From the sequence record NC_025447.1: DNA of 64,000 nucleotides; one strand, given 5' to 3'. A program made the translations under genes and the position numbers. This document shows positions 18,036 through 54,590 of this stretch, piece after piece. Source of the DNA: Escherichia phage 121Q. Within the stretch, counting starts at the first letter, position 1, and every line of letters starts with the position of its first letter. Under the pieces are notes generated by a model that was given only the letters and a program-made list of their open reading frames with translations, had not been told where the DNA came from and ran no database searches.

Positions 18036-18063
18036 TTGACAAGATAGAATGATGTGATACAAT
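18036..18063 (+). promoter_or_regulatory. putative sigma70-type promoter P1 (TTGACA-N16-TACAAT)
   Basis: TTGACA at 18036-18041, TGtgaTACAAT ending 18063. Confidence 0.5.
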
Positions 18064-18128: not shown

Positions 18129-18156
18129 ATTGACAAGTTGAAACGATGTGATATAA
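18129..18156 (+). promoter_or_regulatory. putative sigma70-type promoter P2 (TTGACA-N16-TATAAT, consensus boxes)
   Basis: TTGACA 18129-18134, 16-nt spacer, TGaTATAAT ending 18156. Confidence 0.55.
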
Positions 18157-18218
18157 TGTTCACATCAAGACAGCAAAGAGATTTACCTTTTAAACACACG
18201 GATGATTCATGAAGTAAC

Positions 18219-18326: not shown

Positions 18327-19652
18327 ATGACTACTCAAAACGATATCCTGAACGTTAAACTGACTCCAAAGAAAGCTAAAGAAGCAATGGCACTAGCTGA
18401 CATGATTCAAGATAGCCTGATGATTTGGGGTAGCCCAGGTATCGGTAAGTCTGCAATCGCTCGTCAATACGCTGATGAAAATTACCCACTGCGTAAAGAT
18501 AACGTAGCTAAAATCGAGTTCATGAAACAACAAATCGAAGCTGACCCTGAAAATGCTGATCAGCTACGCCGTGAACTGGCTGCATTTGAAGCAAAACTAA
18601 TCGACCAAGATACTAACTTTATCGATTTCCGTTTGTCTCAAATCGAACCAAGTGACCTTCGCGGTATTCCAGTACCAGAGAAGCTTTTCCGTAAAACTGA
18701 CGGTTCTCTTCTGAAAGAATCTGAGCTTGCCGAAGCAAAAGATTATGTAGCTGAAACTGCGGTAGTATGGGCTGCACCTAAAGTTCTGAAATTGTCCGAA
18801 GATTGGAAAGGTGTTATTCTGTTTGACGAAATTAACTCTGCAATGCCTATTGTTCAGGCAGCGTCTTATCAGCTAATCCTCGACCGTTGTGTTGGTGAGA
18901 TGAAGCTACCTAAGACTGCACTGATTCTTGCAGCAGGTAACCGTGAAACTGATGGCGGTGTAACTTTCTCTCTTGCTACACCACTGCGTGACCGTATGAC
19001 TCACATTGAGATGATTCCTTATCATCAAGATTGGATTAACGATTATGCGATTGCAAAACGTTTGAACCCAGCAACTGTTGCGTTCATCAACAACACTGGT
19101 TCTAAGTACTTTAACACACTTAGTCCACAAGATCCTTCTCACAGTGGTGGTACTTCTCCACGTTCATGGGAAGCAGTAGCACGCTACGAAGATCTCAAGA
19201 AAACTAAGACAATTGATAAAGAAGTGTTCCGTGCAATGATTGCTGGTCGTGTTGGTGAAGGTGTTGCAACTGAATACATTGAGTACGTTGAGAACGTTGC
19301 TAAACTACCAGATACTATGTCTATTCTGTCTGGTGAAATCAAAGAAATCGACGCAACGCTGGATATTTCTGCGAACTACTTTATCACTCTGAACTTGGTT
19401 TATAAAATTATCGACCTGTTCAATGAGAAGCAAGAACAACGTCTACCAGTGGAAGAATGGGGTAAACTGTGTAACAACTTCATCACCTTCCTAGACCATA
19501 ACTTCTCTGCAACTCAAGCAGAACTGGCAGTACTGGCAATTCGTACCATCACGCTTCATAAGGTTGCGATTTCCATTAAAGATGTACCAGCGTTTAAAGA
19601 TTTCATCGCTAAGTACTCTGAACTTGTACGTAAAGCACGCTCTCTTGGCTAA
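18327..19652 (+). CDS. MoxR-like AAA+ ATPase
   Basis: Walker A GSPGIGKS, Walker B ILFDEIN, Arg-rich sensor region; long insertion between Walker A and B. Confidence 0.8.
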   Translation: MTTQNDILNVKLTPKKAKEAMALADMIQDSLMIWGSPGIGKSAIARQYADENYPLRKDNVAKIEFMKQQIEADPENADQLRRELAAFEAKLIDQDTNFIDFRLSQIEPSDLRGIPVPEKLFRKTDGSLLKESELAEAKDYVAETAVVWAAPKVLKLSEDWKGVILFDEINSAMPIVQAASYQLILDRCVGEMKLPKTALILAAGNRETDGGVTFSLATPLRDRMTHIEMIPYHQDWINDYAIAKRLNPATVAFINNTGSKYFNTLSPQDPSHSGGTSPRSWEAVARYEDLKKTKTIDKEVFRAMIAGRVGEGVATEYIEYVENVAKLPDTMSILSGEIKEIDATLDISANYFITLNLVYKIIDLFNEKQEQRLPVEEWGKLCNNFITFLDHNFSATQAELAVLAIRTITLHKVAISIKDVPAFKDFIAKYSELVRKARSLG

Positions 19653-21196: not shown

Positions 21197-21226
21197 GTGG
21201 GACAACTTATAAAAATATGATATAAT
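21197..21226 (+). promoter_or_regulatory. putative early promoter, motif GTGGGACA-N13-TGATATAAT (second copy)
   Basis: Directly after terminator of VWA gene; identical box spacing to 2184-2213. Confidence 0.4.
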
Positions 21227-37704: not shown

Positions 37705-38805
37705 ATGAGTGTTAACTATACAATTTATCGAAGTAATGGTAGTGTTTATGCTACCATTCCAAATAACGTTATTTTAGGTCCAAATCAGCCAGGTAGTAAC
37801 CCAGTTCCATTAAATTTAGTTGGTAGAAACAAAGTAAGTTATGGTCAAGCATGGAATGAAAACTTTTTACATTTAGTTGAAAACTTCAGTTCAGCTTCAG
37901 CACCACGTGGTAACGTAAATGGTCAACTTTGGTATCGAAATACTGGAAGTACTGGTGAGTTATTAATATCATTAGTGGATAATGCTAGACAACCAGCAGA
38001 TATGGTAAGTGAAGCGGAATGGGCTTCTATTCCAATGATAACCGTATTCAACACTGTACCAGATGGTGAAAACAGTGTTATGGGTCGTATGGTATTAACC
38101 AGCAATGGTGATTCACTTCGTGTTTTGATGAAAAACAAAGAATGGCGTGAAATTCAAACATCTCGACCAGAAAACAAAGAATATACATCATTATTAGATA
38201 TTAACTATGATAATGGAAAAAAATACATAGAGTTTACACAAAGTAACAGTACTAAACCAATTGCGTATTTTAACTTAGGCGGTACTTCACAAGTAGATAC
38301 AAATAACTGGACAACATTAACTAATGGTACTGGTGTATTTGAATTTGGTAGCAACTATTTCTATGAATTAAAAATTATGATTAGAGAAGTAAATGATTCT
38401 TCTGGTGAGATAGTTTCTCTTCCATATAATTCAAAAACCTTTTTTATAAAAGGGCAATTCTATGTAGATAATCAAGGAACTTTTGTTCCTGGTTCGGTTG
38501 GGGCAAGTCAAATGCCAGACCCACGTAGGATTACACAATTAGAATCCATAAAAGATGTTATTACCAGTAGTCGCCCAAACTGGGACGTAAATATTGTTAT
38601 TAATGGTGTAGATCCATCTATCCCAAATCCTAATGGAACATCTAAAGCTGATTATGAAAATTGGGTTATCAATTCTCTAAACTCAAATAAAAATTTAGGT
38701 TTTCGAGTTGATGGTAGCATTAGTAATCTAACTGCTGGTGAATCCGTTAAACTACAAGCATCCGTGTTGTTAAATATTACAGGTATTCCGATTATTGGAG
38801 TATAA
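37705..38805 (+). CDS. hypothetical protein (possibly fibre/baseplate associated)
   Basis: 366 aa ORF ending at a bidirectional terminator. Confidence 0.45.
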   Translation: MSVNYTIYRSNGSVYATIPNNVILGPNQPGSNPVPLNLVGRNKVSYGQAWNENFLHLVENFSSASAPRGNVNGQLWYRNTGSTGELLISLVDNARQPADMVSEAEWASIPMITVFNTVPDGENSVMGRMVLTSNGDSLRVLMKNKEWREIQTSRPENKEYTSLLDINYDNGKKYIEFTQSNSTKPIAYFNLGGTSQVDTNNWTTLTNGTGVFEFGSNYFYELKIMIREVNDSSGEIVSLPYNSKTFFIKGQFYVDNQGTFVPGSVGASQMPDPRRITQLESIKDVITSSRPNWDVNIVINGVDPSIPNPNGTSKADYENWVINSLNSNKNLGFRVDGSISNLTAGESVKLQASVLLNITGIPIIGV

Positions 38806-38836
38806 AAAAAGGAGCCATGTGGCTCCTTTTTGTTTT
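38804..38836. terminator. bidirectional terminator between convergent genes
   Basis: AAAAAGGAGCCA-tg-TGGCTCCTTTTT. Confidence 0.7.
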
Positions 38837-39299
38837 AATATCTATATGGTAAACTGTTGACAAACTGTGTACCTTCACGTATACTTTCCCATAGTGAGTA
38901 AAAATCTTTCATTAAGTTTGTGTTAAGTAAAGTATTTTTAGCACCAGGGTGTAATGGTTTAGGCCAAGAACCAATTCTAACCCAAGCATAACCAGAGCTT
39001 TCATGATTTAAAGTTGGTACAAATTCATTCTCAACTACAATAACAAATGAATAATATTTAAATTTACCATTTTTTGTACAAAATACATCAAACGGTATAA
39101 TATCAATAATGTTAGGTATTGAGTTGCCCAACTCTTCTTTAATTTCTCGCATCAGACCTTGTAGTGGTGTTTCGTTATGTTCAAGCTTTCCACCAACAAA
39201 TGCCCAGTTGTTAGAATAGGTACTTCTTTCAGAACGCAAGTTTAACATCATATGTCCAGTACTTTTTGATAAAAATATAGCACCAACCGCTTCATTCAT
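38835..39299 (-). CDS. Nudix hydrolase
   Basis: Nudix box GGKLEHNETPLQGLMREIKEELG; strong AGGAGG RBS. Confidence 0.75.
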   Translation of the reverse strand: MNEAVGAIFLSKSTGHMMLNLRSERSTYSNNWAFVGGKLEHNETPLQGLMREIKEELGNSIPNIIDIIPFDVFCTKNGKFKYYSFVIVVENEFVPTLNHESSGYAWVRIGSWPKPLHPGAKNTLLNTNLMKDFYSLWESIREGTQFVNSLPYRY

Positions 39300-39312
39300 A
39301 ACAACACCTCCT

Positions 39313-40656
39313 TTATTTGTCAGTGAAAGTTATTTTCCAATATCCCTGACGATACACAGGCATGATACTTTTATGCCATTTAAATTTGTCATTATATCTA
39401 TAATAACCATTGTCTTCTTTATTATAAATGTAATTTCGTACAGTAGATGGATCAATTAATTGTGCACCATCATTTGTAATTTTAAACAAATAATTTGATG
39501 GGATTTCGGTTTCTTTATAAATGATGTTATGTATACTGTTATTTACATAATATTGTTCAGGTAATGCACTTGAAAGTACTGAATCTTTCTGCACAAACCC
39601 ATGTATAGTGTAATCAACAGTATAATTGGTATTATCAAGCTGTACTATAATTTTGTTGGCATCTTCATTTTCACCATACGACGCTATATGACCTTTTAGT
39701 GGGTTGTCTTCTTCAATAGATTGTTGAAATTTAATCCCTACTTTTTTGTCATCAAAATTTGGTTCTAGATATTTAAGATATTTTTCCCATGAATATATTC
39801 CACCGTTGGGAGAAACCGCAGATAGCGATTGGCTAACCAAGGTAAGTTGGTATGTATCAGGTAAATTATACTTGGAATTAGTAATTTCTTCAACTTTAAT
39901 GCATAAATTCTTGGGTGTAAAAACATCTGTTATTATATCTGAATAATTTCCCATTTCAAAATCAAATTCGTCACGAGCACCTTTAATATTTGTAGTAATC
40001 TGTTGGATTAATTTTGGTTTTTCAACAATAGCTGGTAAAGAAAACCATATTGTCGTTTCAAATGTTAAAACCATTATATCCAAATCTGGGTCAGTTCCTT
40101 GTGGAAAACCACGAGTAGAAAACTGACAATCTATTAGTTCAACATCACTAAGCGATGTCCAATCTAACGGGTTATCAGATAATTGAAGTTGTATACTAGG
40201 TGCAAACAAAGTTGAGATTTGTTCGAATAATTCCATTTTAGTTTGAGTTTGAGTTACCCAAATATTCAAATCAAACGTAAAAGTCCAAGGTACTGGGTTA
40301 TGTCTTACAATTTTGTATTGTGTGTCAAGATCTTTTGTGTACTCATTAATAGCAGGGGACTTGTTAGACCCCATTACTATAGTTTCGTTGGCATTAGAAC
40401 GAATATTTTTACGATCCAACTTTAGTTGATTAACACTTATGGTCATTATAGGTGCTGATGGGAGAACATTTTCACTATTCCCATTTATAATTGCTGCTGC
40501 CATTCTTGAAATATCGGCATAGCGACATGGAACCTTTTTGTATTTTGGGTTTCCATTAGCATCAATACCATTTTGTACTTGAAATTCACCAAAAACTCTG
40601 ATAAGATGTTTCAGTACTCTGCGAAATTGACCGTCATAATAATAATCTATTTTCAT
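39313..40656 (-). CDS. hypothetical structural (baseplate?) protein
   Basis: 447 aa; start overlaps upstream stop by 4 nt. Confidence 0.45.
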   Translation of the reverse strand: MKIDYYYDGQFRRVLKHLIRVFGEFQVQNGIDANGNPKYKKVPCRYADISRMAAAIINGNSENVLPSAPIMTISVNQLKLDRKNIRSNANETIVMGSNKSPAINEYTKDLDTQYKIVRHNPVPWTFTFDLNIWVTQTQTKMELFEQISTLFAPSIQLQLSDNPLDWTSLSDVELIDCQFSTRGFPQGTDPDLDIMVLTFETTIWFSLPAIVEKPKLIQQITTNIKGARDEFDFEMGNYSDIITDVFTPKNLCIKVEEITNSKYNLPDTYQLTLVSQSLSAVSPNGGIYSWEKYLKYLEPNFDDKKVGIKFQQSIEEDNPLKGHIASYGENEDANKIIVQLDNTNYTVDYTIHGFVQKDSVLSSALPEQYYVNNSIHNIIYKETEIPSNYLFKITNDGAQLIDPSTVRNYIYNKEDNGYYRYNDKFKWHKSIMPVYRQGYWKITFTDK

Positions 40657-42158
40657 TCTGTGTCCTTATGTATGCGATAAACAGTATTAGGTTTAACTGC
40701 GTCATGTAATGGAACTTTGTTATCACTATTTACAAACTGTGTAAGTGCTAAGTCTGCACCTTCCCACGGTTTTCTTCCACCATAATCAAAAATAACCCAT
40801 GAATTCTTAGTTGCATTGAATTCCCATAACGTAACTGGAGTATAATCGGTGCGATAGAAATAGTCACCATCTACTGCATCAGTTGGGAACATATTTCCTT
40901 CAGGGACTGTACCTCGTGCTGGTGGAATTTTAGGACGATAATCTTGTTGCGAATCAATATTACCATATACACAATTGGACGTGAATGGTTCATTGACATA
41001 AGTTACCTTTGGTTCCCCCCACTTGTCATCATTATACTGATAAATGTGTGGTTCTTTATAAAAAATACAAAAATCTTCCACATCTTCTGGTGGAACATCA
41101 CTGGTAGTATATTCTACATCACAATTTAACCATTTTTTAGCACTTTTATCATATTGATACAACGTATAACCTGTCACATCTGCGTCATTTTCTTTAAAGA
41201 AGAAGTCACCATCCATTGGTTTTCTGGGAAAGATGGTTCCACGCTTGACTTCCACAGAAATCCATGTATCATTAACAAACTCTTTGAGTACTGGGTATGT
41301 TTTTTTCAAAAAATACATTCCATCGGCAGGTTCTTCTGGAAAATCATAACCGTTAAGCATATATTTTGATAAATCTACTGTATCAGGTCGATCATCATAC
41401 AAATGTTCATTTGTATAATGAATATAGGGTACTTCATCATCAGCTTGCATGATGATACGGTTCATGATATCCATTTCATTGCCATAGTTACTGTTTTCCG
41501 ACGAACCATCATCGGTATTTCCATTACCATTATTAGGGTCATCTGGATTATCAGGATAATTATTGTTACCGAGTAAATCGGAGTACTCAGGTGAGTCGGT
41601 TAGCGGTTTAACTCTAAGTTTATAAATGTGATGTTGCCACGTAACCGAGTATCCCTCAGATGTACGAAATGCATCTTGGACGACATAGAAGCGGTTTAGA
41701 CCTGTATCTTTACCCAATACATCAAAATCACGTAAATTTGGTAGTTCTATCACATCCCCTGGCATGATTTTTCTACCTAAACGCTGCATCATTGTATTAT
41801 AATGGATTGTGATGTCCATAGTGTTGAAATTAAAGAACAATCCTGGGATTTTCAAGTCTGGAGTTGCTTCTTGAACTTGATAGACACAACTAAGTGTGAT
41901 AGCTTCAAGGTTGTAGTTTCTGTTTGGTGTGTCACCAAAAATTAAATCGCCAATACTTGACACAACTGATCCTGAAGATGTATAATCACCTCCATAGGAT
42001 AAGTCAGTGTTGTCAGCAACTTGTTTTGGACCGACATATGCATAAAGCCACATGTCAACTCCACCAATGTTGTATTGTTCAGCAATGGCAGAATCAATGA
42101 ACTTGTAATCATTGGTTCTACCTTTTTTCCACATTCTATATGTCATGATTGTCTCCAA
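40653..42158 (-). CDS. hypothetical structural protein with three DG(D/M)(Y/F)F-type repeats
   Basis: P.DGMYFLKK, P.DGDFFFKE, A.DGDYFYRT motifs spaced through the protein. Confidence 0.45.
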   Translation of the reverse strand: METIMTYRMWKKGRTNDYKFIDSAIAEQYNIGGVDMWLYAYVGPKQVADNTDLSYGGDYTSSGSVVSSIGDLIFGDTPNRNYNLEAITLSCVYQVQEATPDLKIPGLFFNFNTMDITIHYNTMMQRLGRKIMPGDVIELPNLRDFDVLGKDTGLNRFYVVQDAFRTSEGYSVTWQHHIYKLRVKPLTDSPEYSDLLGNNNYPDNPDDPNNGNGNTDDGSSENSNYGNEMDIMNRIIMQADDEVPYIHYTNEHLYDDRPDTVDLSKYMLNGYDFPEEPADGMYFLKKTYPVLKEFVNDTWISVEVKRGTIFPRKPMDGDFFFKENDADVTGYTLYQYDKSAKKWLNCDVEYTTSDVPPEDVEDFCIFYKEPHIYQYNDDKWGEPKVTYVNEPFTSNCVYGNIDSQQDYRPKIPPARGTVPEGNMFPTDAVDGDYFYRTDYTPVTLWEFNATKNSWVIFDYGGRKPWEGADLALTQFVNSDNKVPLHDAVKPNTVYRIHKDTE

Positions 42159-42189
42159 AATAAATCGGGTATATCTTTATTTACCTTGT

Positions 42190-42217
42190 AGACAAACCGT
42201 AAGAATGTGATATAATG
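42190..42217 (+). promoter_or_regulatory. putative sigma70-type promoter for ClpA-like gene (TAGACA-N16-TGaTATAAT)
   Basis: In divergent intergenic region; -10 identical to the TGTGATATAAT class. Confidence 0.45.
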
Positions 42218-42256
42218 TTTATTAATTAGAGTGACGTGAATCACATAGGAGAATAC

Positions 42257-44545
42257 ATGAATCTTACTCAATTGTTCAAAAAAAGCGACGAACTGGCAAC
42301 ATCTCTAGGTCATACATTCTTGACTATTGACCACGTAAGTGCCACAGTACTGACTATTGATAGCATCAAGAACGTATTTGAAGATATGAACATTGATGCA
42401 GACAAACTGCACAACCGCCTGATGAACTATCTTAAAAATACAACAGTTCCACATGCACCAAAAAGTGTTAAAGATGAAGACGCGAATCGAACTTCACTTC
42501 TAGTGAATCGCGTTGTACATGAGCTTTCTAAAAAATCAGTCATTGAACAACTAAAAAGTGATGATTTTTCGATTGATGCATATTTTGTTCTATTCGAATG
42601 TCTGTCTTTCCCTAACACAGCACTAGAAGCTGCGTTAAAAGAAGAAGGTGTTAGCTGTACTGAAGCTGCACGTGCATTACAGAAACACGTTGAGTCACTT
42701 GATAAGGGTATCAACTTACAAAGTATTAATGACGAACCGATTGGAGATAAAAAAGTGGCCCAACAGCAGCAATCATCTAAACAAAAAGGTTTGGAAGACT
42801 ATACAACGAATCTAACTGCTCTTGCAAAAGAAGGCAAACTAGATCCTATGATTGGTCGCCAGAAAGAATTGTCTGCATTGATTGAGACTCTTGCTCGCAA
42901 AACCAAAAAGAATGCTATTCTCACTGGTGAAGCTGGTGTAGGTAAAACACAAATCATCGACGGGCTTGCACAAGCTATTGCTGATGGTAACGTACCTGAA
43001 CACCTGAAAGACGTTGAAATTCTTTCACTAAATGTTGGTGCATTGACTGCTGGTACTAAGTATCGTGGTGAATTTGAAGAACGCATCGACAATTTGCTAA
43101 AAGAACTAAAGAAACGTGAAAATACTATTGTTTTCATTGATGAAATTCATATTATGGTTGGGGCTGGTTCCGCAAGTAATGGTTCTATGGACATGAGCAA
43201 TATGCTTAAGCCAGCACTTTCACGTGGTGAGATTCGTGTAATTGGTGCAACAACATATGATGAATATCGTAAAAATATCGAGAAAGATAGTGCATTAACT
43301 CGTCGTTTTATGAAAATTGACGTAGTTGAGCCGACAATTGATGAAACTCGTGCAATTGTTAATGGTTTGAAACCAACGTATGAAAAATTCCATAATGTTG
43401 AGTTCACATCTGATGCAATGGATGCTGTAATTTCTCTCAGTGATAAATTCCTGAAGAATAAGCACTTCCCAGATAAAGCAATTGATCTAATGGATGCTGC
43501 TGCGGCTAAAGTTCGTTCACGTGACAACAATAGTAAGCTAATTACTGCCAATTTGATTCAAGAAGTTGTTGCTGGTATTGCCAATTTGGATATCAACGTG
43601 GTTGCATGTACTGAAAGTGATCGTATGCGTAATCTACCAGATGCACTACGCTCACGTGTATACGGTCAAGAGGAAGCTATTCAAAAATTAGTTGATAACG
43701 TGATGGTAGCTCGTGCAGGACTGCGTGACAAATCTAGTGTTCAGGGTGCATTTATGTTTGTTGGACCATCTGGTACTGGTAAAACAGAAATTACCAAAGC
43801 ATTAGCAGACGCAACTGGTGCGGAACTCATTCGCTTTGATATGTCAGAATTTTCTCAAGAACATACTGTTTCTAAACTAATTGGTTCACCTCCAGGTTAT
43901 GTTGGTCATGATTCTGGTAACGGTTTACTGTTGGATAAAATTGAGCAGTTCCCTAATGCAGTACTGTTACTTGATGAAATTGAAAAAGCAGATCGTAAAG
44001 TACTACTAACCTTCCTACAGGTTTTGGATGAAGGTCGTCTGACTGGTTCTCAAGGTAAAACTGTATATTTTAATAACGTAACTGTTATTATGACTACAAA
44101 CCTTGGTGCGGCTGATTCAACAAAGCGTAGCATTGGTATGAGCGGTAGTGACACTGCACAGGACAAGGCAATTAAAGCATTCTTGCCACCAGAGTTTATT
44201 AACCGTATTGATAGTATCGTTACGTTTAAAGACCTAAGCAGTGAAGCTATTGACAGCATCATTGATAAGTTCATGGGTGGTTTGAATGAACAAGTCAAAG
44301 ACCGTAATGTTAAAGTTACATTAACAAAAGCTGCACGTGAATGGCTTGCGAAAAATGGGGTAAAAGTTGGTATGGGTGCACGTCCAATGAAACGTACCAT
44401 TGAACAAAACATTCGTGTGCCACTAGCTAAAGAAATGTTGTGTGGTTCACTTGTGAATGGTGGTAACATTACATTTGATGTTATTGATGGTAAAATCGGT
44501 ATTAAGCCGAAACGTACCAAAGCTGTAGATAAAGCACTAGTATAA
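42257..44545 (+). CDS. ClpA-like AAA+ unfoldase (Clp N-domain plus D1 and D2 ATPase modules, no ClpB middle domain)
   Basis: ORF track 42236-44545, ATG 42257 preferred (AGGAG RBS); D1 Walker A GEAGVGKT and Walker B FIDEIH; D2 GPSGTGKT and LLLDEIEKA; D2 loop [10 protein letters not shown] at the position of the ClpA IGL ClpP-docking loop. Confidence 0.85.
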
Positions 44546-44549
44546 AAAA

Positions 44550-44584
44550 AGAAAAGGAGAGCATAATGCTCTCCTTTTTTTATT
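44550..44584. terminator. bidirectional terminator between ClpA-like gene and giant ORF
   Basis: AAAAGGAGAGCAT-aa-TGCTCTCCTTTTTTTT. Confidence 0.7.
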
Positions 44585-47500
44585 ACTTAACTAATAATAT
44601 ATTTTTAATATCATTACCACTAACTTGTAGACTATCAGTGTATACTGAAAGATCTATAGTGTAACTATTTTGTGTGTAACGTTTTAACATATCATAATTA
44701 CCTAAATTAATTCCATTGAAAGAATATGTAGTATTAAGTTTAAAATCATGTTCTGCACTATACATTACACCACGGAGTAAATTATTTGCATTTCTAACTT
44801 CAACTTTTTCATATCCAATCGATATAATATCATTCATGTTTGCGGCTGAACCGGATAAAACATTATTTCTAATACTATAAGGACTTATTGATTTAGGTTG
44901 AGAAACATAGGTTGTATTTTCTTCACTAATGGTTGTGATGTTAGTAACAGTACCACCAACAACACCGATATACATACCGTCAACCATTGGGAATCCATAA
45001 ACCCATATCCCTTCATTATTTCTAAACGGTTGAATAACACTTGAATCATATTCGATAACGTTGATTTCTAAACTATCAGTCATTTTAGTTCTTGCCAATT
45101 CACTAAGAACTCCCGCACCCGTAATTGGTAAGTTATAACCGTTATCGATAGTAATTCCATCAACATCAAATATTTCATTAGAGATTATCCAAACGTCAAC
45201 GTCATCTGGTGTTATTCCGTCATTGTACTTACCACCATTTAAAGTAGTATCGTAGAAAACATCATAATTAATTACATCAATGGTGTAATTTCTATTTTGT
45301 TCATACAATTTAATACCATTCTTGACAAATTCAGGGTCAGCAAATGTTCTAACACGAACAATGTTCAATGCTAGAGGCTGTACTGGCTCATTTTGTTGTG
45401 CAAGAGTGATGTTATCATAACGGAGAACTGCACCAGTACTCTCATCAATCAATTCAATCGTTTCCTTACCTGTATTTCTTACAGTGAATAGGATCGGAGT
45501 TGTATTGTTTTTGATGTTAGATACACGCAAGATTGTTTCCCATGTGTGATTTTGATATCTCACAAAATCTTCACCATCAGGAGTGAAAATCATCACCTTA
45601 TCACCATCAGATAGGTCATTGTCAACTATTTCTGCTTCAGTTAAGCTATTAATAGATCTCACACGATAGAAATATTTTTCATCAAACTTCGATGTTGTTT
45701 TATTAATATCATTTTCAATCTTAGCATATGAAGGAATACTTACAATTGCTTCTGTATGTTTATATGGATTGATAATTGCCATACCTTCAGTTTGATATCT
45801 GCTGTTATCACGTAATTGTACAAGAGATACATTGTCAAACCCATATCCATCAACTGTAAATCTAATTTGACCTACATCACGCCCAGAAGGGTTTATGTCA
45901 GATATATCCACAATATAAGGATCAACTTCATCATCTTTAACTTCCCATTTTATTGAAGAAGTTTGAGATTCCAATGCTAGGTTATCAAATGCATTCATAT
46001 CATTGAAGTACTTAGCTTCAGTAATACTATCAAGTATATATTGATAATCAGAATACATTGGATTATTTTGATCTAGTGGTAAATCATCAAGATTTATTTC
46101 AGCTAGTTCAACCATTTCACCATTTGTGATAAAATAATCTTCCATGAAATCATCAATACTTTGTTCATCAGGTATACTTTGATATACACCGTTAACATTT
46201 AAGTAAACATATTTTCGTGGAATCATTGTAATTGCATAGATATCAATTGGGGTCTTACTAAGAATCTCTTCAGCTTTTTCGTACTTATCAGTAGCGTCTT
46301 TGTCGAATAACCCTCTCATACCTGCTAATACGTGAATAGCATCAGTATAGAAACGGGTATCACCACCTACTTCATCATAACGATAAACATATACACCATA
46401 CTCAACTTCAAGTTTAACTTTTACTTCATAGTCTGATGCGTCAGGATTTTTATCTTTAATTAATGAAATGTATTTTTGATACAATTCACTGCTTATTTCA
46501 AAATATCCATAGTTATAATCATTACTAGAAGAAAAGCCTAATGGAAGTCTAGTACTAGGATTGTCATTATAAGTAAGTCCACTAAATCCACATCCAACTT
46601 CATCGTGAATTTTCTCATCACTTATATCTTTATAAAGTTTCAAACGGTTTGCCAATGTGTTATACTGAACATATTGTCTAAGGTCAGTAAACATATCGTT
46701 ATGCGTTGATTCTTTATAAACACGTTCCAATGTAGCAGTGAATTCATCAGTTGCTTCTAAATCTTCCGCATGGTCTTTATACCACTGGTTAACGCCATAT
46801 GCTGTTCCTAGTGTTACATCCAATTCTGGATAGTAGATTTGCATTTGATAAGCAATAAGAAGATCGAAAGTTTCTTCACTATATTCTGGGAAAGAATATA
46901 TATAACGTTGTAATTCATAGTTACTAACAGCATCCTTTTCATTGGATTGATATTTGTTATTAACACTTACTAATTCATTTATGCTTGCCAAATCTTCATT
47001 TGGTTTACACTGAATATTATCATAATGCATAATAATATCAATTTCTTGGAATCTTCTATTTGGTGTAACGAAATCACTTGGTAGTGAACCTACCTGTTCC
47101 CATTTTTGGGTAATTTCATTAAATTGAGCGTACTCATAATCCCAAATATCTTTTTCAGTTTTGATCCAAGAACCGTCAACGAAAATATATCCATTAGGAT
47201 CTAAATCATTACATAGACCTTTTATTAAATCATCATCAGATGTCTTTTGCTCTATTTGTGAACGAATTTTAGTTCTATAAGGTTTAACTTCTTCAAAATA
47301 TTCAACAATTTGATTAATCAAATTATCGTTTGAATAGTTTTGAACTAATGATTGTTCCAAACCAACAATATAGATATATGATGTTTTAAATACCCAATCC
47401 ACAACACTTTGTTCAACATGTACATATTTGACCATATCAAAAACAATTTCGCTTTGATGTAAATCGAAAGAATTTTTGAGTAAAGCTAGTGCTTTACGAA

Positions 47501-50500
47501 CGTTGATTTCACGATTGCTTAGTGATCCATTATCATTATGAACACTATAATCTGCGTAAAGCATATCATTGAGTTCAACTGTACTGTTTTCACGACCAAT
47601 CGCTTTCCAATAAATTGAATCGCGTGATTGTGATTTAATATACAATGTCCAAATGTTTTCACTATCGGTAACTCTGATAATATCGCCAACTTGGTAGTTT
47701 TTAGTATTAGCATCTTCTAAGCTTGACTCTTGTGTATAAGTCGTGTTACTATCATACCCAACATCATACCAATCAGCATATGACCAGTACTGAGTCATGT
47801 CCAATGAAGTTCCCAGTGATTCAACATAATCAGATTGTTTAATCATTTTATGTTGACCCTCACCTTTGTTCTCTAACGTTATAGTAACAACACTACCCGC
47901 GTTTGCTGGACTATTCATTAACTGAATATATCCATTTTCGTCGAAGTGAATAAAATAAACAGCACTAGAAGTTAATGGATTTGGTAGATATCCACTAGTA
48001 CTTAAAATAACAGCGTCATTTTCTTTAAATTTATCACTTTCAACTGCAATAACTAATTCATTATTGTAAGACAATACACGGAAAGAAACTTCATTCGGAT
48101 TAACTTCAGTGGTTTTAACATTAAACACATCTTCCATAACAACACTATTAGTGGTTATGTTTTGTGACCTATAATAATTATTAGCACTTTCTACAAAGTT
48201 TCTACGAGCTTCTATAACATTTTGGAACCAAGTTTTGTTTGAACCTAAACCGTTATCAACATCTGGATATAATAAATTAATCACAGAACCTGATTCAGTT
48301 GTTTCTTGACCAATTAGTGAGTTCCACATTGAATCCCAAATTAGTGGGTTAAAGTTATAGCTGTCACCTTCTTTACATAGTTGATACTGGTCATGTTTAA
48401 CAACTTCAGTACTATCCATGTAATAAGAAACAGTTAAAATACTGGTATCATCATTCACTTTAAATTGCATATTACTAAGAATAAACGAGTTTTCATTGAT
48501 TGGAGCGAACCAAGGAATGTTTAGCTGTGTTGGATCTTTAATAATACGAGCAATGTCAGTACATGATTTTGTTCTGGTATGTAGTGGTGGTACATAAATT
48601 GTATCACGTACCCAGAAATAGTATTTTGTCACATAACTATCAGTTGAACTATCATATTCCAAAAATGTACTATAATTATCTTCAAGTGCAGTTCCACTTG
48701 GTAGATACATAGTATTATTTTTGTTTTTCTTAGCAACATCTTTACAGTATTTGTCCCAGTTATATGGCTCAACTGGTGAACAAACCCACTCTAACACATC
48801 AATTGTACTATGTGGTAATAAACGACCCCAGTTGTAACGTTTGTATTCATTGGTTGCATCAATATCAACATTACCGTCTGCGTCATAAATTGCACGAGTA
48901 TAATCCAAATAAAATGCAGTGCTAGTGTTCCACCATACTTGACCAACTTTATCAGCACCCCAAGCCTGGATTAACTCTCCATTACTATTATACTGTGCAG
49001 GATCAACTGGTGAAGTATATGTTACGTTTTGCATAGCCGCACCTGGAATAACACCATTAATTGGGTCATAAACGTTTAGATATAGCTCAGTAATGTTAGT
49101 ACGTTCATCATATGTCGTTGGACGATCAAATAAAGTACTTTGTGGTGCTTTAAAACTATATTTCTTGTCAATGTAAGCTTGACGTTCATCAGTACTGGCA
49201 AAACGTGATACATAACGATACAAACGTGGACGTGTATCTGGATCAGTAAATTCAATATCAATAGAAGTGTCAAATGGAACTACCATAACTTTAGGATCAG
49301 AACCAGCAGTATAATATTGACTTTCTACTGTTAAAGTATCTGGCATAAAGTTAGTTTCATCAACAAAATAATAATAATCACCATCTTCAAGTGGTACATT
49401 ATCAGTTAAAGTTACTTTACAAAATTGTTCAGCATACACATCGGTATTTTCAATAGGTGTTATAGAAACCATTTGCACATTAGTATCAACCAATTCAAAA
49501 ATGTTCCACAAACCATTACCGTCTTTAAACATCCACACAGATTCAGGATTTTCACCTTTACCATTAGTATAAGTTATGCGGTCATTATATGCAGTACTGA
49601 AATCTTTTGTTGTGTACGATACTTCATCCAATGTTACTGGACCAATATCTGGAAGTTGGATGTTTTCACTTCTTCCACTACGCATTGGGAATGAGAACTT
49701 ACCATTTGGACGTGTAATCCAACGAGGATCTTTACCCTGCTCACCGAAGTATACAATATGATTACCATTACCATTTGAAGTTGCATTTACATCAAAAGAA
49801 ACCATTTGAGGTTGTTGTTTAAATTGGTCATTGATTAGTTTAAATTGAAGGTTTTTCTTACCATCAATATTACCATATGTACCAATTTTAAATGCCCATT
49901 CTTGTAATGCTTTATATTCATCAGTGTCATATGATTTAGAAACACGAAGTACACGTTCTAAAACTTGGTTAGTACCTTTATCGTGAATGAATCCTTTATA
50001 GAAATCAACACGACTAACATCACTGCTAATCATACGCTGTAGATAATCACGAGATTGATAACCAATCAAATGGTTTGACAACTCTTGTAATTGTACATCA
50101 CTTACTGGAGTTTCACTATCATAATAATGTTGGAAATCCGACACTAATTTTTCAAATGATGGTAGTGTTCCAGCTTCCAAGATAATAAATCCAGGAGCTT
50201 GTAGGCGACCAGTCCATGAACCAGTAATATATCCATACATTTTAATTAGTTCTTGAATAGAACCATATGTTGGCTGATAAATGTAATCACCAAAAATAGT
50301 TTTATCATCAAAAATAACAGCATGTTCATATGAACACAAACTTAAACGAATCAATGCAATGCGTTTATTAGATTCTAAAGTTCTAACAGTGAAGATATTT
50401 CCAATACGAGAAGTTTCAATTTCATATTGGCGAATACCTTGGTTATTATCATCAAGTAATGACCATACACCACCATTATTTTGCGTAATAGATTGTACTG

Positions 50501-53500
50501 AACCAAAGTCTGCCCCAAATTTAGCGTTTGCAGCACTTGGGGTACAAGAAATAAATTCACCAGTTACTAGAGAATTCTGACTCCAGATCACGAAATCTTT
50601 AGCAATAGTGTTCCAATCTTGTTGAGCACCACTATCATTTACATCTTCAAAAATCCAACCATGTTCTTTAAGATATTCACCATATCCACAAATAAAAGTA
50701 TAAACTTCTTGGTAACTATTGAAAACTTTACCATATTCAATTGAAGCTTCAGACTTCCATTCATTATAATGAACAACATTACGGTTTTCCAATTTAAGAG
50801 TTACTTTTCTACCATTTTTTACGGGAAGTTTATATTTAAATTTAGCACCAACTAGATCATATCCATCAATCTGATATGCACTACCATTCCAAGTAATTTT
50901 GATCGCACTCATTTGCTCATCACGGATATTATTAGAACGAACAAGACCAATGGTTTGGTTTTCTTGTGAAATAAGACCGAAAGATTTAGCATTGAATGTT
51001 AGCTGATCTGCTTTAGTAAATCCTCCAATTTTATGACCAACATTTATATAAGAAGAACGAACTACATCCCCATACTTGGTGGTAATATTTTTATTTTGAT
51101 ACATCAAATGGTCACTTACAAACATTTGATAACCAATTGTTCTTGTGCTATTTTCACCATGAACTACTGTATTTTTATCAAAATTAATACGCTTACGTGT
51201 ATCACCATAAAGGAATTGTGAACCATCAGTGAATACTTCTTTTAAGTTATCATTGCGGGTATCCCAGAAATAGTTAGCAAATTGTGCTGGTTTAGCTTTA
51301 TACAAAAGCATCATTTGGTCATATGCAAACAATGTAGTGTTCATGTATGTAAATTCCATGTCACCCATATCACCATATGTCCAAGGTTCTGCTCTATGAT
51401 TTAAAGATCCAGACACTAAACCTAAAATTTCAGGTGCAATATATTCAACCACACAAATATCAATACCAGAAGATGTTTTATTTCCAGTTTTTGTAATTTT
51501 GAATGGCTGTACACCAAATCTTTTATATTTGTCATATTGACCACGACGATCACCAAATAAAATAGTTCCAGTACTGCTATCGCCAATAGTTCCGTCAATA
51601 TCCCAAAGACCACTAGGAACTAAATCACCTTGCTCATTCATAACAAGTGCTTCATATACATATACAACATCACTATCACGTTCACCAACTTGAACAGCCG
51701 TTGGTTCGTATTCTTGGTTCCACCAAGTTGGACGTTGTGTAAAGCCAAACATTTCCCACGGATGGGTAGCTGGGCGATATGTACCATATTGGTCAGTGTA
51801 AATGGCACGCCATGAACCACGTGCAGGAATTTCAGTACTTTGACCATTAACTACATAATAAGTGCCAGTATAGTTCCAAGTTCTCCAATTGTTAGGATCA
51901 TAATCATGTGTACTATTACTGATACCATTAGTTGCGGTGAAGTTAATGTATCCACGTAGTAATAATGTTTGTTTCTCTTCAGCACTATATTCAGTTTTAG
52001 TGAAATATGGTGTAGGGAAAAGGTCATCACTATTCAATACTGGTACGTAATCAACATCTTTGAATTTATTATCAATACTATTAAAAATTCTATTTTCTAA
52101 TTCATATACAACATCATCCATTTTATCAACACCATTGATAACACGGTATGCTTTGGAAATAATACCAGTATGACTGATGTTATAACAGCTTGGTTTACTA
52201 CCAGCAGTGAGGAATGTCGCTTTTTCTGGTACATATGCTTGAAGAATACCTAAGAACTGTGGTGTTGGTGGTATAAATGCACGAATGAATCCAGAAGTAC
52301 TTCCAACATTATCATAATAGAATGGGAATGAACTATCACGTCCCATATTAATAGTAGTTAAAATTGCATCAACAATGTTTGCAGCACTATTTTGTAAAAA
52401 GTCTGATGGATTTTCATCATACATACGAAGCATTTGTGTATTAAATTTATTAATGAATCTAAAATATTCAGATTGCATAAACATAGTTGCTTCAAATAAA
52501 TCAATATCTTCATTTGCAGTATGTGCCATCAATGGAAGCATAGATGCTTCATTTTGGATAATTTTAGTACCTACGCCATTATTAACCAATCCTTTAGCCA
52601 AACGTTCTTCATAGTCATTGAAATCATCAGAAGAACCACGTGTAATGTTCTTTTGAATAATATCCTGAAAATGTAAAGTGTAGTCACCTTGGTTAATGTA
52701 TATAATATTGGAATTGTATGGGTTATTTTGTAAGTTAATTGGAACTTCATATGCACCTAATTCTTTATTAGGAGTTACAGTACTGCTATAAGTTCTAATT
52801 TGAATAACTGAATCTTCATCCAAATCTACAGTGCTATCTAAGGTGATACTTTGAACTTGACCTTTTGATACATTTTTGGTATATTTTGATACATCAACAC
52901 CATCAACAACAACTTCAATTATGTCAGAATCATTATCTAAAACTTTTTGTGCTAATTCGAATGTGTGGTCATATTTTACAATCTGAACACCATCACCAGT
53001 GATTGGATGCCAGTCTAGATAAGTTTCGCGGTCTGCTTTATAGTACTGATAGGTTCTATCAACTTCAATAACATATGCATACATACCATCAACTGGTTCT
53101 TTAAAAACTTCCATATCATAAACAGTACTGAATACACGATACATATCAGTACGTTTGACTTGTGGAGTTTGTTTTACAAATTGTTTAGAGTACTCTTCTG
53201 AACGAACCCAATCGGTTTGAAGATTCATTTCATTATTTTCATCAATAATGTTATAATAGTATAAACCATCAATTTCAACTTCTTTTCCAAGATGGTCATA
53301 GGTATAACGTTGGGATTGTAAAAAGTTTTCATAAATGTAATAATTATAATCACCAAGTTCAATGTTATATCCATATACACTATCAGTTGCATAGTTGTAA
53401 TTTATTTTAAAACCAAACAACTCTGAACCTTTAAAGTTACTGGATGGATATGTAGTACTGTTGTCAAGTTTGATACCATTACGATCATAAAGTTGGAATT

Positions 53501-54554
53501 TAGGGAATATGTTAACACTAGTTTTTGATTGTGCACGAACCCACAAAGAACCATTCCAGTACATAGAACTGTTACCATACTCATTACCTTTGGTGATTAG
53601 AACAACATCACCATCTTGAGGTTCACCACTTGGGCGTGATTCGGTTTCTTCTTCTGGATCTAATGCCAAACCATAAACACGAGTACCATCCTGCATTTTT
53701 TTGACATATACATTATAAATTCTATTATTTTCACCATTGTTACCAATACTGGTGAATAGAATACGCATACCATCTTGTGGAATAATACCATCAATACGGA
53801 TGCCACTATTAATATCTTTTTGTACGATATCTTCAGGTTTGATTATATCTGAGAATAGATCGACAGTTCCACGGAATTTTGTACCGTAGTTAATTAGTTC
53901 AATATTTTTATTATATTCGATAATTGGAGCACGGGCACGAATAAAGCGAGAATCTTGCATTAATTCTTCAGTTAAAATTGAACCATCTTCTAAAGTTTCA
54001 CCTAAAGTATACCAAAAGTTTTGTAGTGACCATGTATTACCATTAAGTGCACCACGTTCCATTACAATGTAATCAGGTGAAGTAATATTATAAGAGTTTT
54101 TAGTATCCCAAAGATATGAGCTAAAATTGTTCATTTTATTTGGGTTAATAGCTGGAGTCCATGCATAAAACTTACCGTTGAACAAACGGCTTTCATTATC
54201 GGTTAGTGCTCCATAATGATTCATGTATCCAACTAGATCATCATAAAATTGAATTGAACGAATTGTCGAATCATCATTTTTTGAGACGTAAGCAGTGGAC
54301 AACTGATAAAGTTGACGTGCTACAGTACTTTCATGTAAGAAGATATTACCAGCAGCGGCAGGAGAACCCATATCACCAATATAGCCGTCAACTAATTCGT
54401 TTTCAGCCGGATTAAACCATTGTTGAATAACATCATCACTGACTTTTTGAATATCTTCTAAGCCTTGCATCCACTCAGGCAATCTTTTAATAAAAAGCTT
54501 CTTCTGTACTGCTTCAGCCATCTGTGTAGGTTGAAACTTAAAATTATTAGTCAT
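44583..54554 (-). CDS. giant virion structural protein (about 3320 aa), baseplate/fibre module
   Basis: Single uninterrupted frame (ORF track start 54584); second ATG at 54554 has GGAG 7 nt upstream and lies downstream of a late-promoter-like box; no domain assigned. Confidence 0.55.
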   Translation of the reverse strand: MTNNFKFQPTQMAEAVQKKLFIKRLPEWMQGLEDIQKVSDDVIQQWFNPAENELVDGYIGDMGSPAAAGNIFLHESTVARQLYQLSTAYVSKNDDSTIRSIQFYDDLVGYMNHYGALTDNESRLFNGKFYAWTPAINPNKMNNFSSYLWDTKNSYNITSPDYIVMERGALNGNTWSLQNFWYTLGETLEDGSILTEELMQDSRFIRARAPIIEYNKNIELINYGTKFRGTVDLFSDIIKPEDIVQKDINSGIRIDGIIPQDGMRILFTSIGNNGENNRIYNVYVKKMQDGTRVYGLALDPEEETESRPSGEPQDGDVVLITKGNEYGNSSMYWNGSLWVRAQSKTSVNIFPKFQLYDRNGIKLDNSTTYPSSNFKGSELFGFKINYNYATDSVYGYNIELGDYNYYIYENFLQSQRYTYDHLGKEVEIDGLYYYNIIDENNEMNLQTDWVRSEEYSKQFVKQTPQVKRTDMYRVFSTVYDMEVFKEPVDGMYAYVIEVDRTYQYYKADRETYLDWHPITGDGVQIVKYDHTFELAQKVLDNDSDIIEVVVDGVDVSKYTKNVSKGQVQSITLDSTVDLDEDSVIQIRTYSSTVTPNKELGAYEVPINLQNNPYNSNIIYINQGDYTLHFQDIIQKNITRGSSDDFNDYEERLAKGLVNNGVGTKIIQNEASMLPLMAHTANEDIDLFEATMFMQSEYFRFINKFNTQMLRMYDENPSDFLQNSAANIVDAILTTINMGRDSSFPFYYDNVGSTSGFIRAFIPPTPQFLGILQAYVPEKATFLTAGSKPSCYNISHTGIISKAYRVINGVDKMDDVVYELENRIFNSIDNKFKDVDYVPVLNSDDLFPTPYFTKTEYSAEEKQTLLLRGYINFTATNGISNSTHDYDPNNWRTWNYTGTYYVVNGQSTEIPARGSWRAIYTDQYGTYRPATHPWEMFGFTQRPTWWNQEYEPTAVQVGERDSDVVYVYEALVMNEQGDLVPSGLWDIDGTIGDSSTGTILFGDRRGQYDKYKRFGVQPFKITKTGNKTSSGIDICVVEYIAPEILGLVSGSLNHRAEPWTYGDMGDMEFTYMNTTLFAYDQMMLLYKAKPAQFANYFWDTRNDNLKEVFTDGSQFLYGDTRKRINFDKNTVVHGENSTRTIGYQMFVSDHLMYQNKNITTKYGDVVRSSYINVGHKIGGFTKADQLTFNAKSFGLISQENQTIGLVRSNNIRDEQMSAIKITWNGSAYQIDGYDLVGAKFKYKLPVKNGRKVTLKLENRNVVHYNEWKSEASIEYGKVFNSYQEVYTFICGYGEYLKEHGWIFEDVNDSGAQQDWNTIAKDFVIWSQNSLVTGEFISCTPSAANAKFGADFGSVQSITQNNGGVWSLLDDNNQGIRQYEIETSRIGNIFTVRTLESNKRIALIRLSLCSYEHAVIFDDKTIFGDYIYQPTYGSIQELIKMYGYITGSWTGRLQAPGFIILEAGTLPSFEKLVSDFQHYYDSETPVSDVQLQELSNHLIGYQSRDYLQRMISSDVSRVDFYKGFIHDKGTNQVLERVLRVSKSYDTDEYKALQEWAFKIGTYGNIDGKKNLQFKLINDQFKQQPQMVSFDVNATSNGNGNHIVYFGEQGKDPRWITRPNGKFSFPMRSGRSENIQLPDIGPVTLDEVSYTTKDFSTAYNDRITYTNGKGENPESVWMFKDGNGLWNIFELVDTNVQMVSITPIENTDVYAEQFCKVTLTDNVPLEDGDYYYFVDETNFMPDTLTVESQYYTAGSDPKVMVVPFDTSIDIEFTDPDTRPRLYRYVSRFASTDERQAYIDKKYSFKAPQSTLFDRPTTYDERTNITELYLNVYDPINGVIPGAAMQNVTYTSPVDPAQYNSNGELIQAWGADKVGQVWWNTSTAFYLDYTRAIYDADGNVDIDATNEYKRYNWGRLLPHSTIDVLEWVCSPVEPYNWDKYCKDVAKKNKNNTMYLPSGTALEDNYSTFLEYDSSTDSYVTKYYFWVRDTIYVPPLHTRTKSCTDIARIIKDPTQLNIPWFAPINENSFILSNMQFKVNDDTSILTVSYYMDSTEVVKHDQYQLCKEGDSYNFNPLIWDSMWNSLIGQETTESGSVINLLYPDVDNGLGSNKTWFQNVIEARRNFVESANNYYRSQNITTNSVVMEDVFNVKTTEVNPNEVSFRVLSYNNELVIAVESDKFKENDAVILSTSGYLPNPLTSSAVYFIHFDENGYIQLMNSPANAGSVVTITLENKGEGQHKMIKQSDYVESLGTSLDMTQYWSYADWYDVGYDSNTTYTQESSLEDANTKNYQVGDIIRVTDSENIWTLYIKSQSRDSIYWKAIGRENSTVELNDMLYADYSVHNDNGSLSNREINVRKALALLKNSFDLHQSEIVFDMVKYVHVEQSVVDWVFKTSYIYIVGLEQSLVQNYSNDNLINQIVEYFEEVKPYRTKIRSQIEQKTSDDDLIKGLCNDLDPNGYIFVDGSWIKTEKDIWDYEYAQFNEITQKWEQVGSLPSDFVTPNRRFQEIDIIMHYDNIQCKPNEDLASINELVSVNNKYQSNEKDAVSNYELQRYIYSFPEYSEETFDLLIAYQMQIYYPELDVTLGTAYGVNQWYKDHAEDLEATDEFTATLERVYKESTHNDMFTDLRQYVQYNTLANRLKLYKDISDEKIHDEVGCGFSGLTYNDNPSTRLPLGFSSSNDYNYGYFEISSELYQKYISLIKDKNPDASDYEVKVKLEVEYGVYVYRYDEVGGDTRFYTDAIHVLAGMRGLFDKDATDKYEKAEEILSKTPIDIYAITMIPRKYVYLNVNGVYQSIPDEQSIDDFMEDYFITNGEMVELAEINLDDLPLDQNNPMYSDYQYILDSITEAKYFNDMNAFDNLALESQTSSIKWEVKDDEVDPYIVDISDINPSGRDVGQIRFTVDGYGFDNVSLVQLRDNSRYQTEGMAIINPYKHTEAIVSIPSYAKIENDINKTTSKFDEKYFYRVRSINSLTEAEIVDNDLSDGDKVMIFTPDGEDFVRYQNHTWETILRVSNIKNNTTPILFTVRNTGKETIELIDESTGAVLRYDNITLAQQNEPVQPLALNIVRVRTFADPEFVKNGIKLYEQNRNYTIDVINYDVFYDTTLNGGKYNDGITPDDVDVWIISNEIFDVDGITIDNGYNLPITGAGVLSELARTKMTDSLEINVIEYDSSVIQPFRNNEGIWVYGFPMVDGMYIGVVGGTVTNITTISEENTTYVSQPKSISPYSIRNNVLSGSAANMNDIISIGYEKVEVRNANNLLRGVMYSAEHDFKLNTTYSFNGINLGNYDMLKRYTQNSYTIDLSVYTDSLQVSGNDIKNILLVK

Positions 54555-54590
54555 TTTTGGACTCCATATAATTCGTTCATTCATTTGATT

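Follow-up and report, generated by a model that had tools for sequence, protein, structure and literature searches.

The window analysed here, a 64,000-nucleotide stretch of Escherichia phage 121Q (NC_025447.1), carries a plus-strand gene for a ClpA-like unfoldase, and a sequence-only reading of it had suggested that the product may hand substrates to the ClpP of the host. We asked which partner such a motor is likely to serve: the host peptidase, a peptidase of the phage itself, or no peptidase at all. Weighing the results, we cautiously favour a cytoplasmic product, made from a host-type promoter, that would supply the ATPase of a ClpA-ClpP protease encoded by the phage and served by a ClpS-like adaptor. 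GenBank, PHROGs and two papers already cover the protein, its assignment to ClpA and its conservation among Rak2-like phages, and the gene is correctly annotated in public records. The present analysis adds a correction of the likely partner from host to phage ClpP, and identifies the docking motif as the variable part of the protein.

Identity and anatomy of the clpA product

The open reading frame listed at 42236..44545 on the plus strand is GTG-initiated and encodes 769 amino acids (aa). We took the ATG at 42257 as the likely start, because a Shine-Dalgarno sequence sits 5 nucleotides (nt) ahead of it and GenBank records use the same start. This start gives 762 aa and a stop codon, so the earlier count of 763 aa was one too many, although the reading frame itself proved real and intact.

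42247..42251, plus strand: Shine-Dalgarno sequence AGGAG, read directly from the sequence, 5 nt 5' of the ATG
42257..44545, plus strand: clpA-like coding sequence, 762 aa plus stop; phAPEC6 gp246c (2289 nt) in GenBank, 'ATP-dependent protease' in PBECO4 and SHEFM2K, 'clpA' in slurp01 and SP27

Positions 38000-48000 of the window were 99.3-99.6% identical at the nucleotide level, across all 10 kb, to Escherichia phages SP27, slurp01, phAPEC6, PBECO4, SHEFM2K and others. The clpA product showed 100% amino acid identity in at least 11 Asteriusvirus records and belongs to the PHROGs family phrog_4871. The window therefore derives from an Asteriusvirus, a jumbo myovirus of the Rak2-like type that infects E. 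coli and has a genome of ~350 kb.

A search against NCBIfam ranked ClpA (TIGR02639) first, with 754.7 bits (E=9.5e-227; residues 3-740 on model positions 5-732), followed by ClpB (633.9 bits) and then TssH/ClpV. Among solved structures, HMMER gave E. coli ClpA (1ksf) as the best match (E=2.4e-180) in a single unbroken alignment of query residues 17-741 with ClpA residues 20-734, whereas the alignments with ClpB, ClpC and Hsp104 (E ~1e-145 to 1e-152) were broken into two stretches at their M-domain. These relatives share the Hsp100 class-1 double-ring core with the window protein (33-45% identity in structural alignments), but they carry a coiled-coil middle domain where the window protein has no insert. 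ClpB also lacks a ClpP-docking loop. Pfam returned AAA (D1), AAA_lid_9, AAA_2 (D2) and ClpB_D2-small. The absence of an M-domain, together with ClpA as the highest-scoring family, ruled out a ClpB or ClpC identity. The alignments with ClpA, ClpC and ClpB references thus confirmed the ClpA type proposed in the sequence-only reading and revealed no middle domain that it had overlooked. These results indicate that the gene is real and intact, and that this giant E. coli phage, itself already known, encodes a predicted unfolding motor of the ClpA type.

The domain order, an N-domain, a linker, D1, D2 and D2-small with no M-domain, was the same as in E. coli ClpA (ClpAP/ClpAPS; PDB 1ksf, 1r6b, 6w1z, 7uiv). 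Matches to Clp_N, AAA and AAA_2, and the presence of all motifs quoted earlier, bore out the claim of a Clp N-domain followed by two complete AAA+ modules.

42257..42706, plus strand: Clp N-domain, ~aa 1-150, highly diverged, from Pfam Clp_N and the helices of the AlphaFold2 (AF2) model
42725..42781, plus strand: disordered Q/K-rich linker between N-domain and D1, aa 157-175, AF2 predicted local distance difference test (pLDDT) <50
42794..43576, plus strand: D1 AAA+ module, ~aa 180-440, with Walker A GEAGVGKT, pore-1 KYR, Walker B FIDEIH and arginine fingers RRF; 50.7% identity to E. coli ClpA D1
43577..44491, plus strand: D2 AAA+ module and D2-small, ~aa 441-745, with Walker A GPSGTGKT, pore-1 GYVG, Walker B and sensor-2 GARP; 45.8% identity to ClpA D2

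In D1, GEAGVGKT was located at aa 224-231, KYRG at aa 268-271 and FIDEIH at aa 293-298; in D2, GPSGTGKT was located at aa 503-510, GYVG at aa 547-550 and LLLDEIEKA at aa 570-578. The D2 region matched AAA_2 with E=2.4e-49 and ClpB_D2-small with E=8.5e-22. Compared with E. coli ClpA, the pore loops, Walker motifs, arginine fingers and sensor-2 were identical or conservatively replaced. The N-domain was only 18.5% identical to that of E. coli ClpA, and Pfam Clp_N, run on the N-terminal 178 aa alone, matched its first repeat only (aa 11-59; E=3e-5, 24.5 bits against a cutoff of 20.7). Residues H22, E28 and H29 of E. coli ClpA, which we take to be ClpS-contacting residues, aligned in HMMER with phage H19, D25 and H26. 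Within the phage clade H19 and H26 were invariant and D25 was at least 90% conserved.

We then examined a structure model of the phage ClpA built by AF2 with 64 homologues (mean pLDDT 78). The model showed a helical N-domain of eight helices (aa 3-148), a disordered linker and two AAA+ modules, with no long inserted coiled coil; aa 303-309 (D1 pore-2) and aa 624-630 (the loop containing SIGM) were flexible loops of low confidence. Foldseek matched the model to the ClpA protomers of ClpAP cryo-electron microscopy (cryo-EM) complexes, with target-normalised template modelling scores of 0.79-0.90, root-mean-square deviations of 3.1-5.2 Å and 46-48% identity.

Conservation was assessed on 115 clade representatives, clustered at 90% identity and 45-93% identical to the window protein. 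The Walker A and B motifs, pore-1 loops, arginine fingers, sensor-1 and sensor-2 were at least 95% conserved, which suggests that the product is an active motor under purifying selection. The best 120 of at least 8000 candidate homologues were nearly all from the phage clade. Among the matches listed, the next relative below the Rak2-like clade (at least 53% identity) came after a wide similarity gap: it was P0115 (758 aa, on an 80-kb contig), at 45% identity to the window protein. Its docking tripeptide reads IGY, and it seems to belong to another phage or mobile genetic element lineage and not to the cellular ClpAs.

The docking loop and the phage ClpP

Cryo-EM of E. coli ClpAP showed that ClpA residues 616-620 (SIGLI) form the loop inserted into a hydrophobic ClpP pocket (bioRxiv 10.1101/820209). 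HMMER aligned the phage segment RSIGMSGSD onto ClpA KSIGLIHQD, and MAFFT alignments concurred, confirming that the IGM tripeptide singled out in the sequence-only reading lies within the docking loop.

44129..44140, plus strand: SIGM, aa 625-628, at the position of the ClpA S616-I617-G618-L619 ClpP-docking loop

The ClpA-type helix-loop-helix with an IG[L/F]-like tripeptide is present at the base of D2, with Met in place of Leu/Phe, and SIG[L/M] stands at the same place in both proteins. The phage protein differs from E. coli ClpA in its diverged N-domain, its shorter loop, and Met and Ser in place of Leu619 and Ile620. It is also phage-encoded, with its own promoter inside a block of structural genes and a presumed ClpP partner that is phage-encoded as well.

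Searches of the window with tblastn revealed no clpP or clpS, giving only noise at E>5, as had been stated for clpP. The search for clpP elsewhere in the genome revealed a phage-encoded ClpP outside the window, recorded as phAPEC6 gp353c, as slurp01 'clpP' (PSLUR01_00364) and as SHEFM2K 347949..638, a gene that spans the origin and is labelled 'head maturation protease'. Coordinates with an L number lie outside the window.

L003:6001-6696: slurp01 clpP
L006:6245-6940: phAPEC6 gp353c (clpP)

The phage ClpP matched Pfam CLP_protease (PF00574) with E=2.9e-41, and among solved structures it matched a bacterial ClpP best (6hwm, E=5e-36); E. coli ClpP followed with E ~2e-30 and was 34% identical in the alignment. 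The motifs GYAASMG, MCHQ and DRD were present, the triad S97/H122/D171 was kept, and the protein carries a ClpP-like N-terminal gating segment. The gene is surrounded by non-structural genes such as those for DNA ligase and phosphatases, and is not in the head module. We considered the label 'head maturation protease' (RefSeq, Pharokka) unlikely and probably a misnomer, because a separate T4 gp21-type prohead protease (gp227c) is listed beside the scaffold and major head proteins, clpP stands in a non-structural context, and ClpP is absent from phAPEC6 virions.

Eight Rak2-like ClpPs, 33-35% identical to E. coli ClpP, were compared at the pocket positions defined in bioRxiv 10.1101/820209. The results showed that the pocket for the IGL loop was altered at Y60 (to T, V or S), F82 (to S, Y, N or C) and F49 (to W or Y), that L114 was replaced by G in all eight, and that A52 was replaced by S in five of them. 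Position 192 was R, K or Q in a second alignment, an assignment that depends on the alignment. The Rak2-like ClpPs also share a C-terminal extension of ~20 residues that bacterial ClpP does not have, with the consensus ..NE.G.Y.VKRR.G...WV (..NEEGKYLVKRRGGVEEWV). When loop and pocket were paired by genome, RaK2 had IGV with V60/Y82/F112, and Hallingskeid had IGG with Y189, that is, a small third residue with a bulkier pocket. The pattern is suggestive, though only that, of a ClpA loop and a ClpP pocket that may have diverged on both sides, lineage by lineage.

On the ClpA side, no functional motif was less conserved across the clade than the tripeptide. Among the 115 representatives we counted IGM (16), MGM (16), IGV (11), LGM (9), IGA (9), LGL (8), MSM (8), VGF (6), IGG (5), MNM (5) and others, and 57% were canonical-like [ILMV]-G-[LFM]. 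The ClpPs of the E. coli, Klebsiella, Salmonella and Erwinia hosts are nearly invariant. Drift of the tripeptide across phages whose hosts have near-identical ClpPs speaks against a loop selected to dock on the host protein; co-evolution with a ClpP of the phage, or a relaxation of constraint, would account for it better.

These data bear on the view that the ClpP of the E. coli host is the docking partner of the phage ClpA, either alone or in mixed complexes, and that proteolysis is thereby redirected to substrates of the phage's choice. SIGM at the loop position is chemically near SIGL, the preceding basic residues are kept (KR vs RK), and the closest sister lineage has LGL; moreover, host ClpP is abundant at the time when a sigma-70 promoter would fire. 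However, the phage retains a ClpP of its own, predicted to be catalytically intact from its kept triad and co-conserved with clpA. The tripeptide drifts to IGV, IGA, IGG, MSM and MNM in phages of E. coli, Klebsiella, Salmonella and Erwinia, and the contacts made by I620 and H621/Q622 of E. coli ClpA are not kept, as the phage has S, G and S there. We therefore regard docking on host ClpP as unlikely. Of the original proposal, the compatibility of the loop stood, while the host as the likely partner gave way to the phage's own intact ClpP, which is co-conserved with clpA together with a ClpS-like gene.

The ClpS-like protein and the co-occurrence of the three genes

A ClpS-domain protein was located outside the window as phAPEC6 gp164c (181 aa). 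With E. coli ClpS as the query, tblastn found no Asteriusvirus ClpS, and gp164c was reached only through an intermediate from GAP32, whose orthologue GAP32_314 scored 41.8 bits on PF02617. The protein belongs to phrog_15940 (E=2e-96), has an N-terminal extension of ~70 aa, and retains D35, T38 and E79 of E. coli ClpS in the alignment. Its gene lies directly downstream of a homologue of translation initiation factor IF-3 encoded by the phage, a pairing kept in Asteriusvirus and GAP32.

L005:3472-4534: phAPEC6 gp165c-gp164c
L004:748-1854: GAP32_313-314

Phage records were searched by tblastn for all three genes. ClpA at ≥60% identity was found in 69 records, ClpP at ≥60% in 68 and a ClpS-like protein in 70. 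By genus, the tallies for ClpA, ClpP and ClpS-like were 31, 32 and 32 in Escherichia, 11, 10 and 10 in Klebsiella, 8, 8 and 8 in Erwinia, and 10, 8 and 8 in Salmonella phages. All three lists include PBECO4, slurp01, RaK2, K64-1, GAP32, CBB, Hallingskeid, fHe-Yen9-04, BF, pEa_SNUABM_19, PHA46 and 7t3; genomes were matched across the lists by accession, with a named representative protein used instead for a few of the ClpAs. The clpA family is thus conserved in ~70 jumbo phages with sequenced genomes, among them candidates for phage therapy directed at E. coli, Klebsiella, Salmonella and Erwinia. Some records are irregular. In CMSTMSU (MH494197.1) clpA is in five pieces (ClpA twice, ClpB and hypothetical) and clpP in two, probably through frameshift errors; CRJP21 (OQ708376.1) gives clpA as 'virion protein and lysozyme murein'; and WPEC3 (PV611058.1) calls the ClpS-like gene 'DNA gyrase subunit A'.

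Independent jumbo lineages, the PA5oct group and Atu_ph07, also have all three genes together in one phage genome. In Atu_ph07 the ClpA, ClpP and ClpS homologues are gp292, gp676 and gp708 (PMC6102473), and Iyer et al. (2021) reported ClpA, ClpX, ClpP and ClpS in jumbo phages, speculating on translocase, assembly or host-hijack roles (PMC7824862). The ClpAs of Atu_ph07 and the Pseudomonas PA5oct group share just 38-41% identity with the window protein. The ClpPs of these phages closely resemble those of bacteria: that of Atu_ph07 is 62.6% identical to E. coli ClpP with a largely canonical pocket, and that of Pa30-3 is 48.8% identical with a less canonical one, differing at Y60, F82, L114 and other positions. 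This closeness points to separate, more recent acquisitions, and the Rak2-like trio would be an older, more diverged lineage than the trios of Atu_ph07 and the PA5oct group.

Three points, namely the co-conservation of the trio, the promoter class that clpA and clpP have in common, and the divergent tripeptide and pocket, are seemingly unstated in the literature searched, and we offer them as leads. A more tentative proposal is that Rak2-like phages might carry an old, self-contained and possibly orthogonal ClpS-ClpA-ClpP machine whose loop and pocket have co-diverged from those of the host. If so, the phage ATPase would feed the phage peptidase alone, host ClpX and ClpA would not use phage ClpP, and the phage could degrade host defence or housekeeping proteins, or its own spent early proteins, independently of the host Clp network.

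Promoter, virion content and function

The promoter that the sequence-only reading had placed ahead of the gene, TAGACA-N16-TGaTATAAT, was found as described. It is of the host sigma-70 type, with 11 of 12 consensus matches in addition to the extended -10. Generic sigma-70-like sites were not enriched near clpA (13 observed against 16.8 expected). The specific motif GACA-N13-TGNTATAAT, by contrast, occurred in the window four times exactly (at 2188, 18132, 21201 and 42191) and six times with at most one mismatch, all on the plus strand, against 1.07 expected; none of 100 shuffles gave six.

42189..42216, plus strand: sigma-70-type promoter of clpA, with -35 TAGACA at 42189-42194, a 16-nt spacer, TATAAT at 42211-42216 and TG at 42208-42209 (extended -10 TGaTATAAT)
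2188-2213, 18132-18157, 18038-18063 (one mismatch), 21201-21226 and 42191-42216, plus strand: GACA-N13-TGNTATAAT sites in the window
L001:47165-47190 (late sigma factor gene), L003:5941-5966 (clpP) and L005:828-853: GACA-N13-TGNTATAAT sites outside the window
44552..44578, no strand assigned: likely bidirectional intrinsic-terminator hairpin between the convergent clpA and 3333-aa genes, a perfect 12-bp stem (AAAAGGAGAGCA/TGCTCTCCTTTT) with an A-run before it and a T-run after it

In the window and in the phAPEC6 and slurp01 loci, the same promoter class also precedes the gene for a MoxR ATPase, the gp263c operon that ends in thymidylate synthase, the gene for a gp55-like late sigma factor, and clpP; clpA and clpP have the architecture nGACA-N13-TGATATAAT in common. 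Its recurrence at non-structural genes indicates a phage promoter class that would be read by host sigma-70, and an early or middle class would be a reasonable inference from these gene sets. In CBB and XaC1, clpA is likewise preceded by an extended -10 at the corresponding place, and in RaK2 by TTGACA-N18-TATAAT with TG.

The statement that clpA is the sole plus-strand gene among the tail and baseplate genes holds for the block from gp249 to gp238. The order of NUDIX (minus), sheath-completion protein (minus), structural protein (minus), clpA (plus) and giant protein (minus) was identical in RaK2, CBB and XaC1. In the phAPEC6 virion proteome of 62 proteins, the clpA neighbours gp244, gp245 and gp248 are present, and gp246c (ClpA), gp353c (ClpP) and gp164c (the ClpS-like protein) are missing (PMC7247149). 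A role as a virion or assembly protein, as the genomic position might suggest, was thus unsupported: ClpA is absent from phAPEC6 virions, lies on the opposite strand and has its own promoter and terminator.

A related possibility is a chaperone or remodeller independent of ClpP, which would help virion proteins of great size, for example the adjacent 3333-aa baseplate-associated protein, to fold or assemble, or would take complexes apart. ClpA acts alone on RepA, which provides a model for such an activity. The position of clpA between the tail and baseplate genes is strictly conserved in RaK2, CBB and XaC1, down to 53% aa identity, and the poor conservation of the docking tripeptide would also fit. 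Virion-assembly or translocase roles have been proposed for jumbo-phage ClpA and ClpX by Iyer et al. (PMC7824862). However, the gene is in the opposite orientation, with a sigma-70-type promoter and a terminator of its own and no transcription unit in common with its flanking genes. The ClpA-type helix-loop-helix is kept with no ClpB-type replacement, ClpP and the ClpS-like gene are co-conserved with it, and ClpA is not in virions, all of which leave this role a low probability.

Phages are known to inhibit host proteases, as T4 PinA does with Lon, but a decoy that titrates host ClpS, ClpP or substrates and shuts down host proteolysis without degrading is very improbable here, as the Walker A and B motifs, arginine fingers, sensors and pore loops of both rings, at least 95% conserved, would be needless for it.

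The phage-encoded ClpA-ClpP protease that we favour would work as follows. Host sigma-70 RNA polymerase would transcribe clpA from its own extended -10 promoter, apart from the opposed late tail and baseplate genes. The product would form a hexameric double ring, not packaged in the virion, in which ATP consumed by both rings would drive substrates past the KYR and GYVG pore loops. At the base of D2, the SIGM loop would dock on a ClpP tetradecamer, into which the unfolded polypeptide would then be fed. The ClpP partner is most likely the phage's own, gp353c in phAPEC6, encoded ~85 kb from clpA, and the diverged N-domain probably receives gp164c as its adaptor. Substrates may be host proteins, degraded for takeover or counter-defence, phage early proteins due for removal, or both.

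Several results weigh against this protease. The clpA, clpP and clpS genes are ~82-85 kb apart and form no operon. The product missed the NCBIfam equivalog cutoffs for ClpA (754.7 against 993.15 bits for TIGR02639; 654.6 against 1350 bits for NF008263), and we therefore call it ClpA-like and not an NCBI 'equivalog'. Its docking loop is 2-4 residues shorter than that of E. coli ClpA, and in the representatives the third position of the tripeptide is A, V, G, Y or H in 25% and the Gly is missing in 17% (MSM, MNM); such weak conservation could mean that ClpP docking is not the conserved function. The covariation of loop and pocket was drawn from just eight non-independent genome pairs. The match of gp164c to Pfam ClpS (PF02617) is marginal (24.7 bits against a cutoff of 23), and its N-degron pocket is altered (N34D, D36P, M40A and H66N, with K84 also not kept). 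As its pocket residues are only partly kept, its function as an adaptor is uncertain, and its specificity, if any, is probably other than for canonical N-degrons. In CBB, ClpP (CBB_104) was detected in virions by one peptide with 4.5% coverage (PMC5259590), which keeps a part for ClpP in morphogenesis conceivable. Literature searches on ClpA, ClpP and ClpS of jumbo phages gave genomic mentions only and no experimental study.

By bringing along a complete energy-dependent protease of unfoldase, peptidase and adaptor, a virus could change the set of proteins that persists during infection, for example by removing host defences or by timing the turnover of its own proteins. The diverged docking interface also offers a natural test case for the co-evolution of specificity between AAA+ unfoldases and ClpP.

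Two neighbouring genes of the window were also noted. The 3333-aa open reading frame at 44583-54584 on the minus strand (phAPEC6 gp245, 382 kDa) is found in virions and is convergent with clpA, and a giant open reading frame adjoins clpA also in RaK2, CBB, XaC1, Hallingskeid and fHe-Yen9-04. The MoxR-type AAA+ ATPase at 18327-19652 on the plus strand (phAPEC6 gp265c), which has the same promoter class as clpA, was, unlike ClpA, detected in purified virions (6 peptides, 19% coverage).

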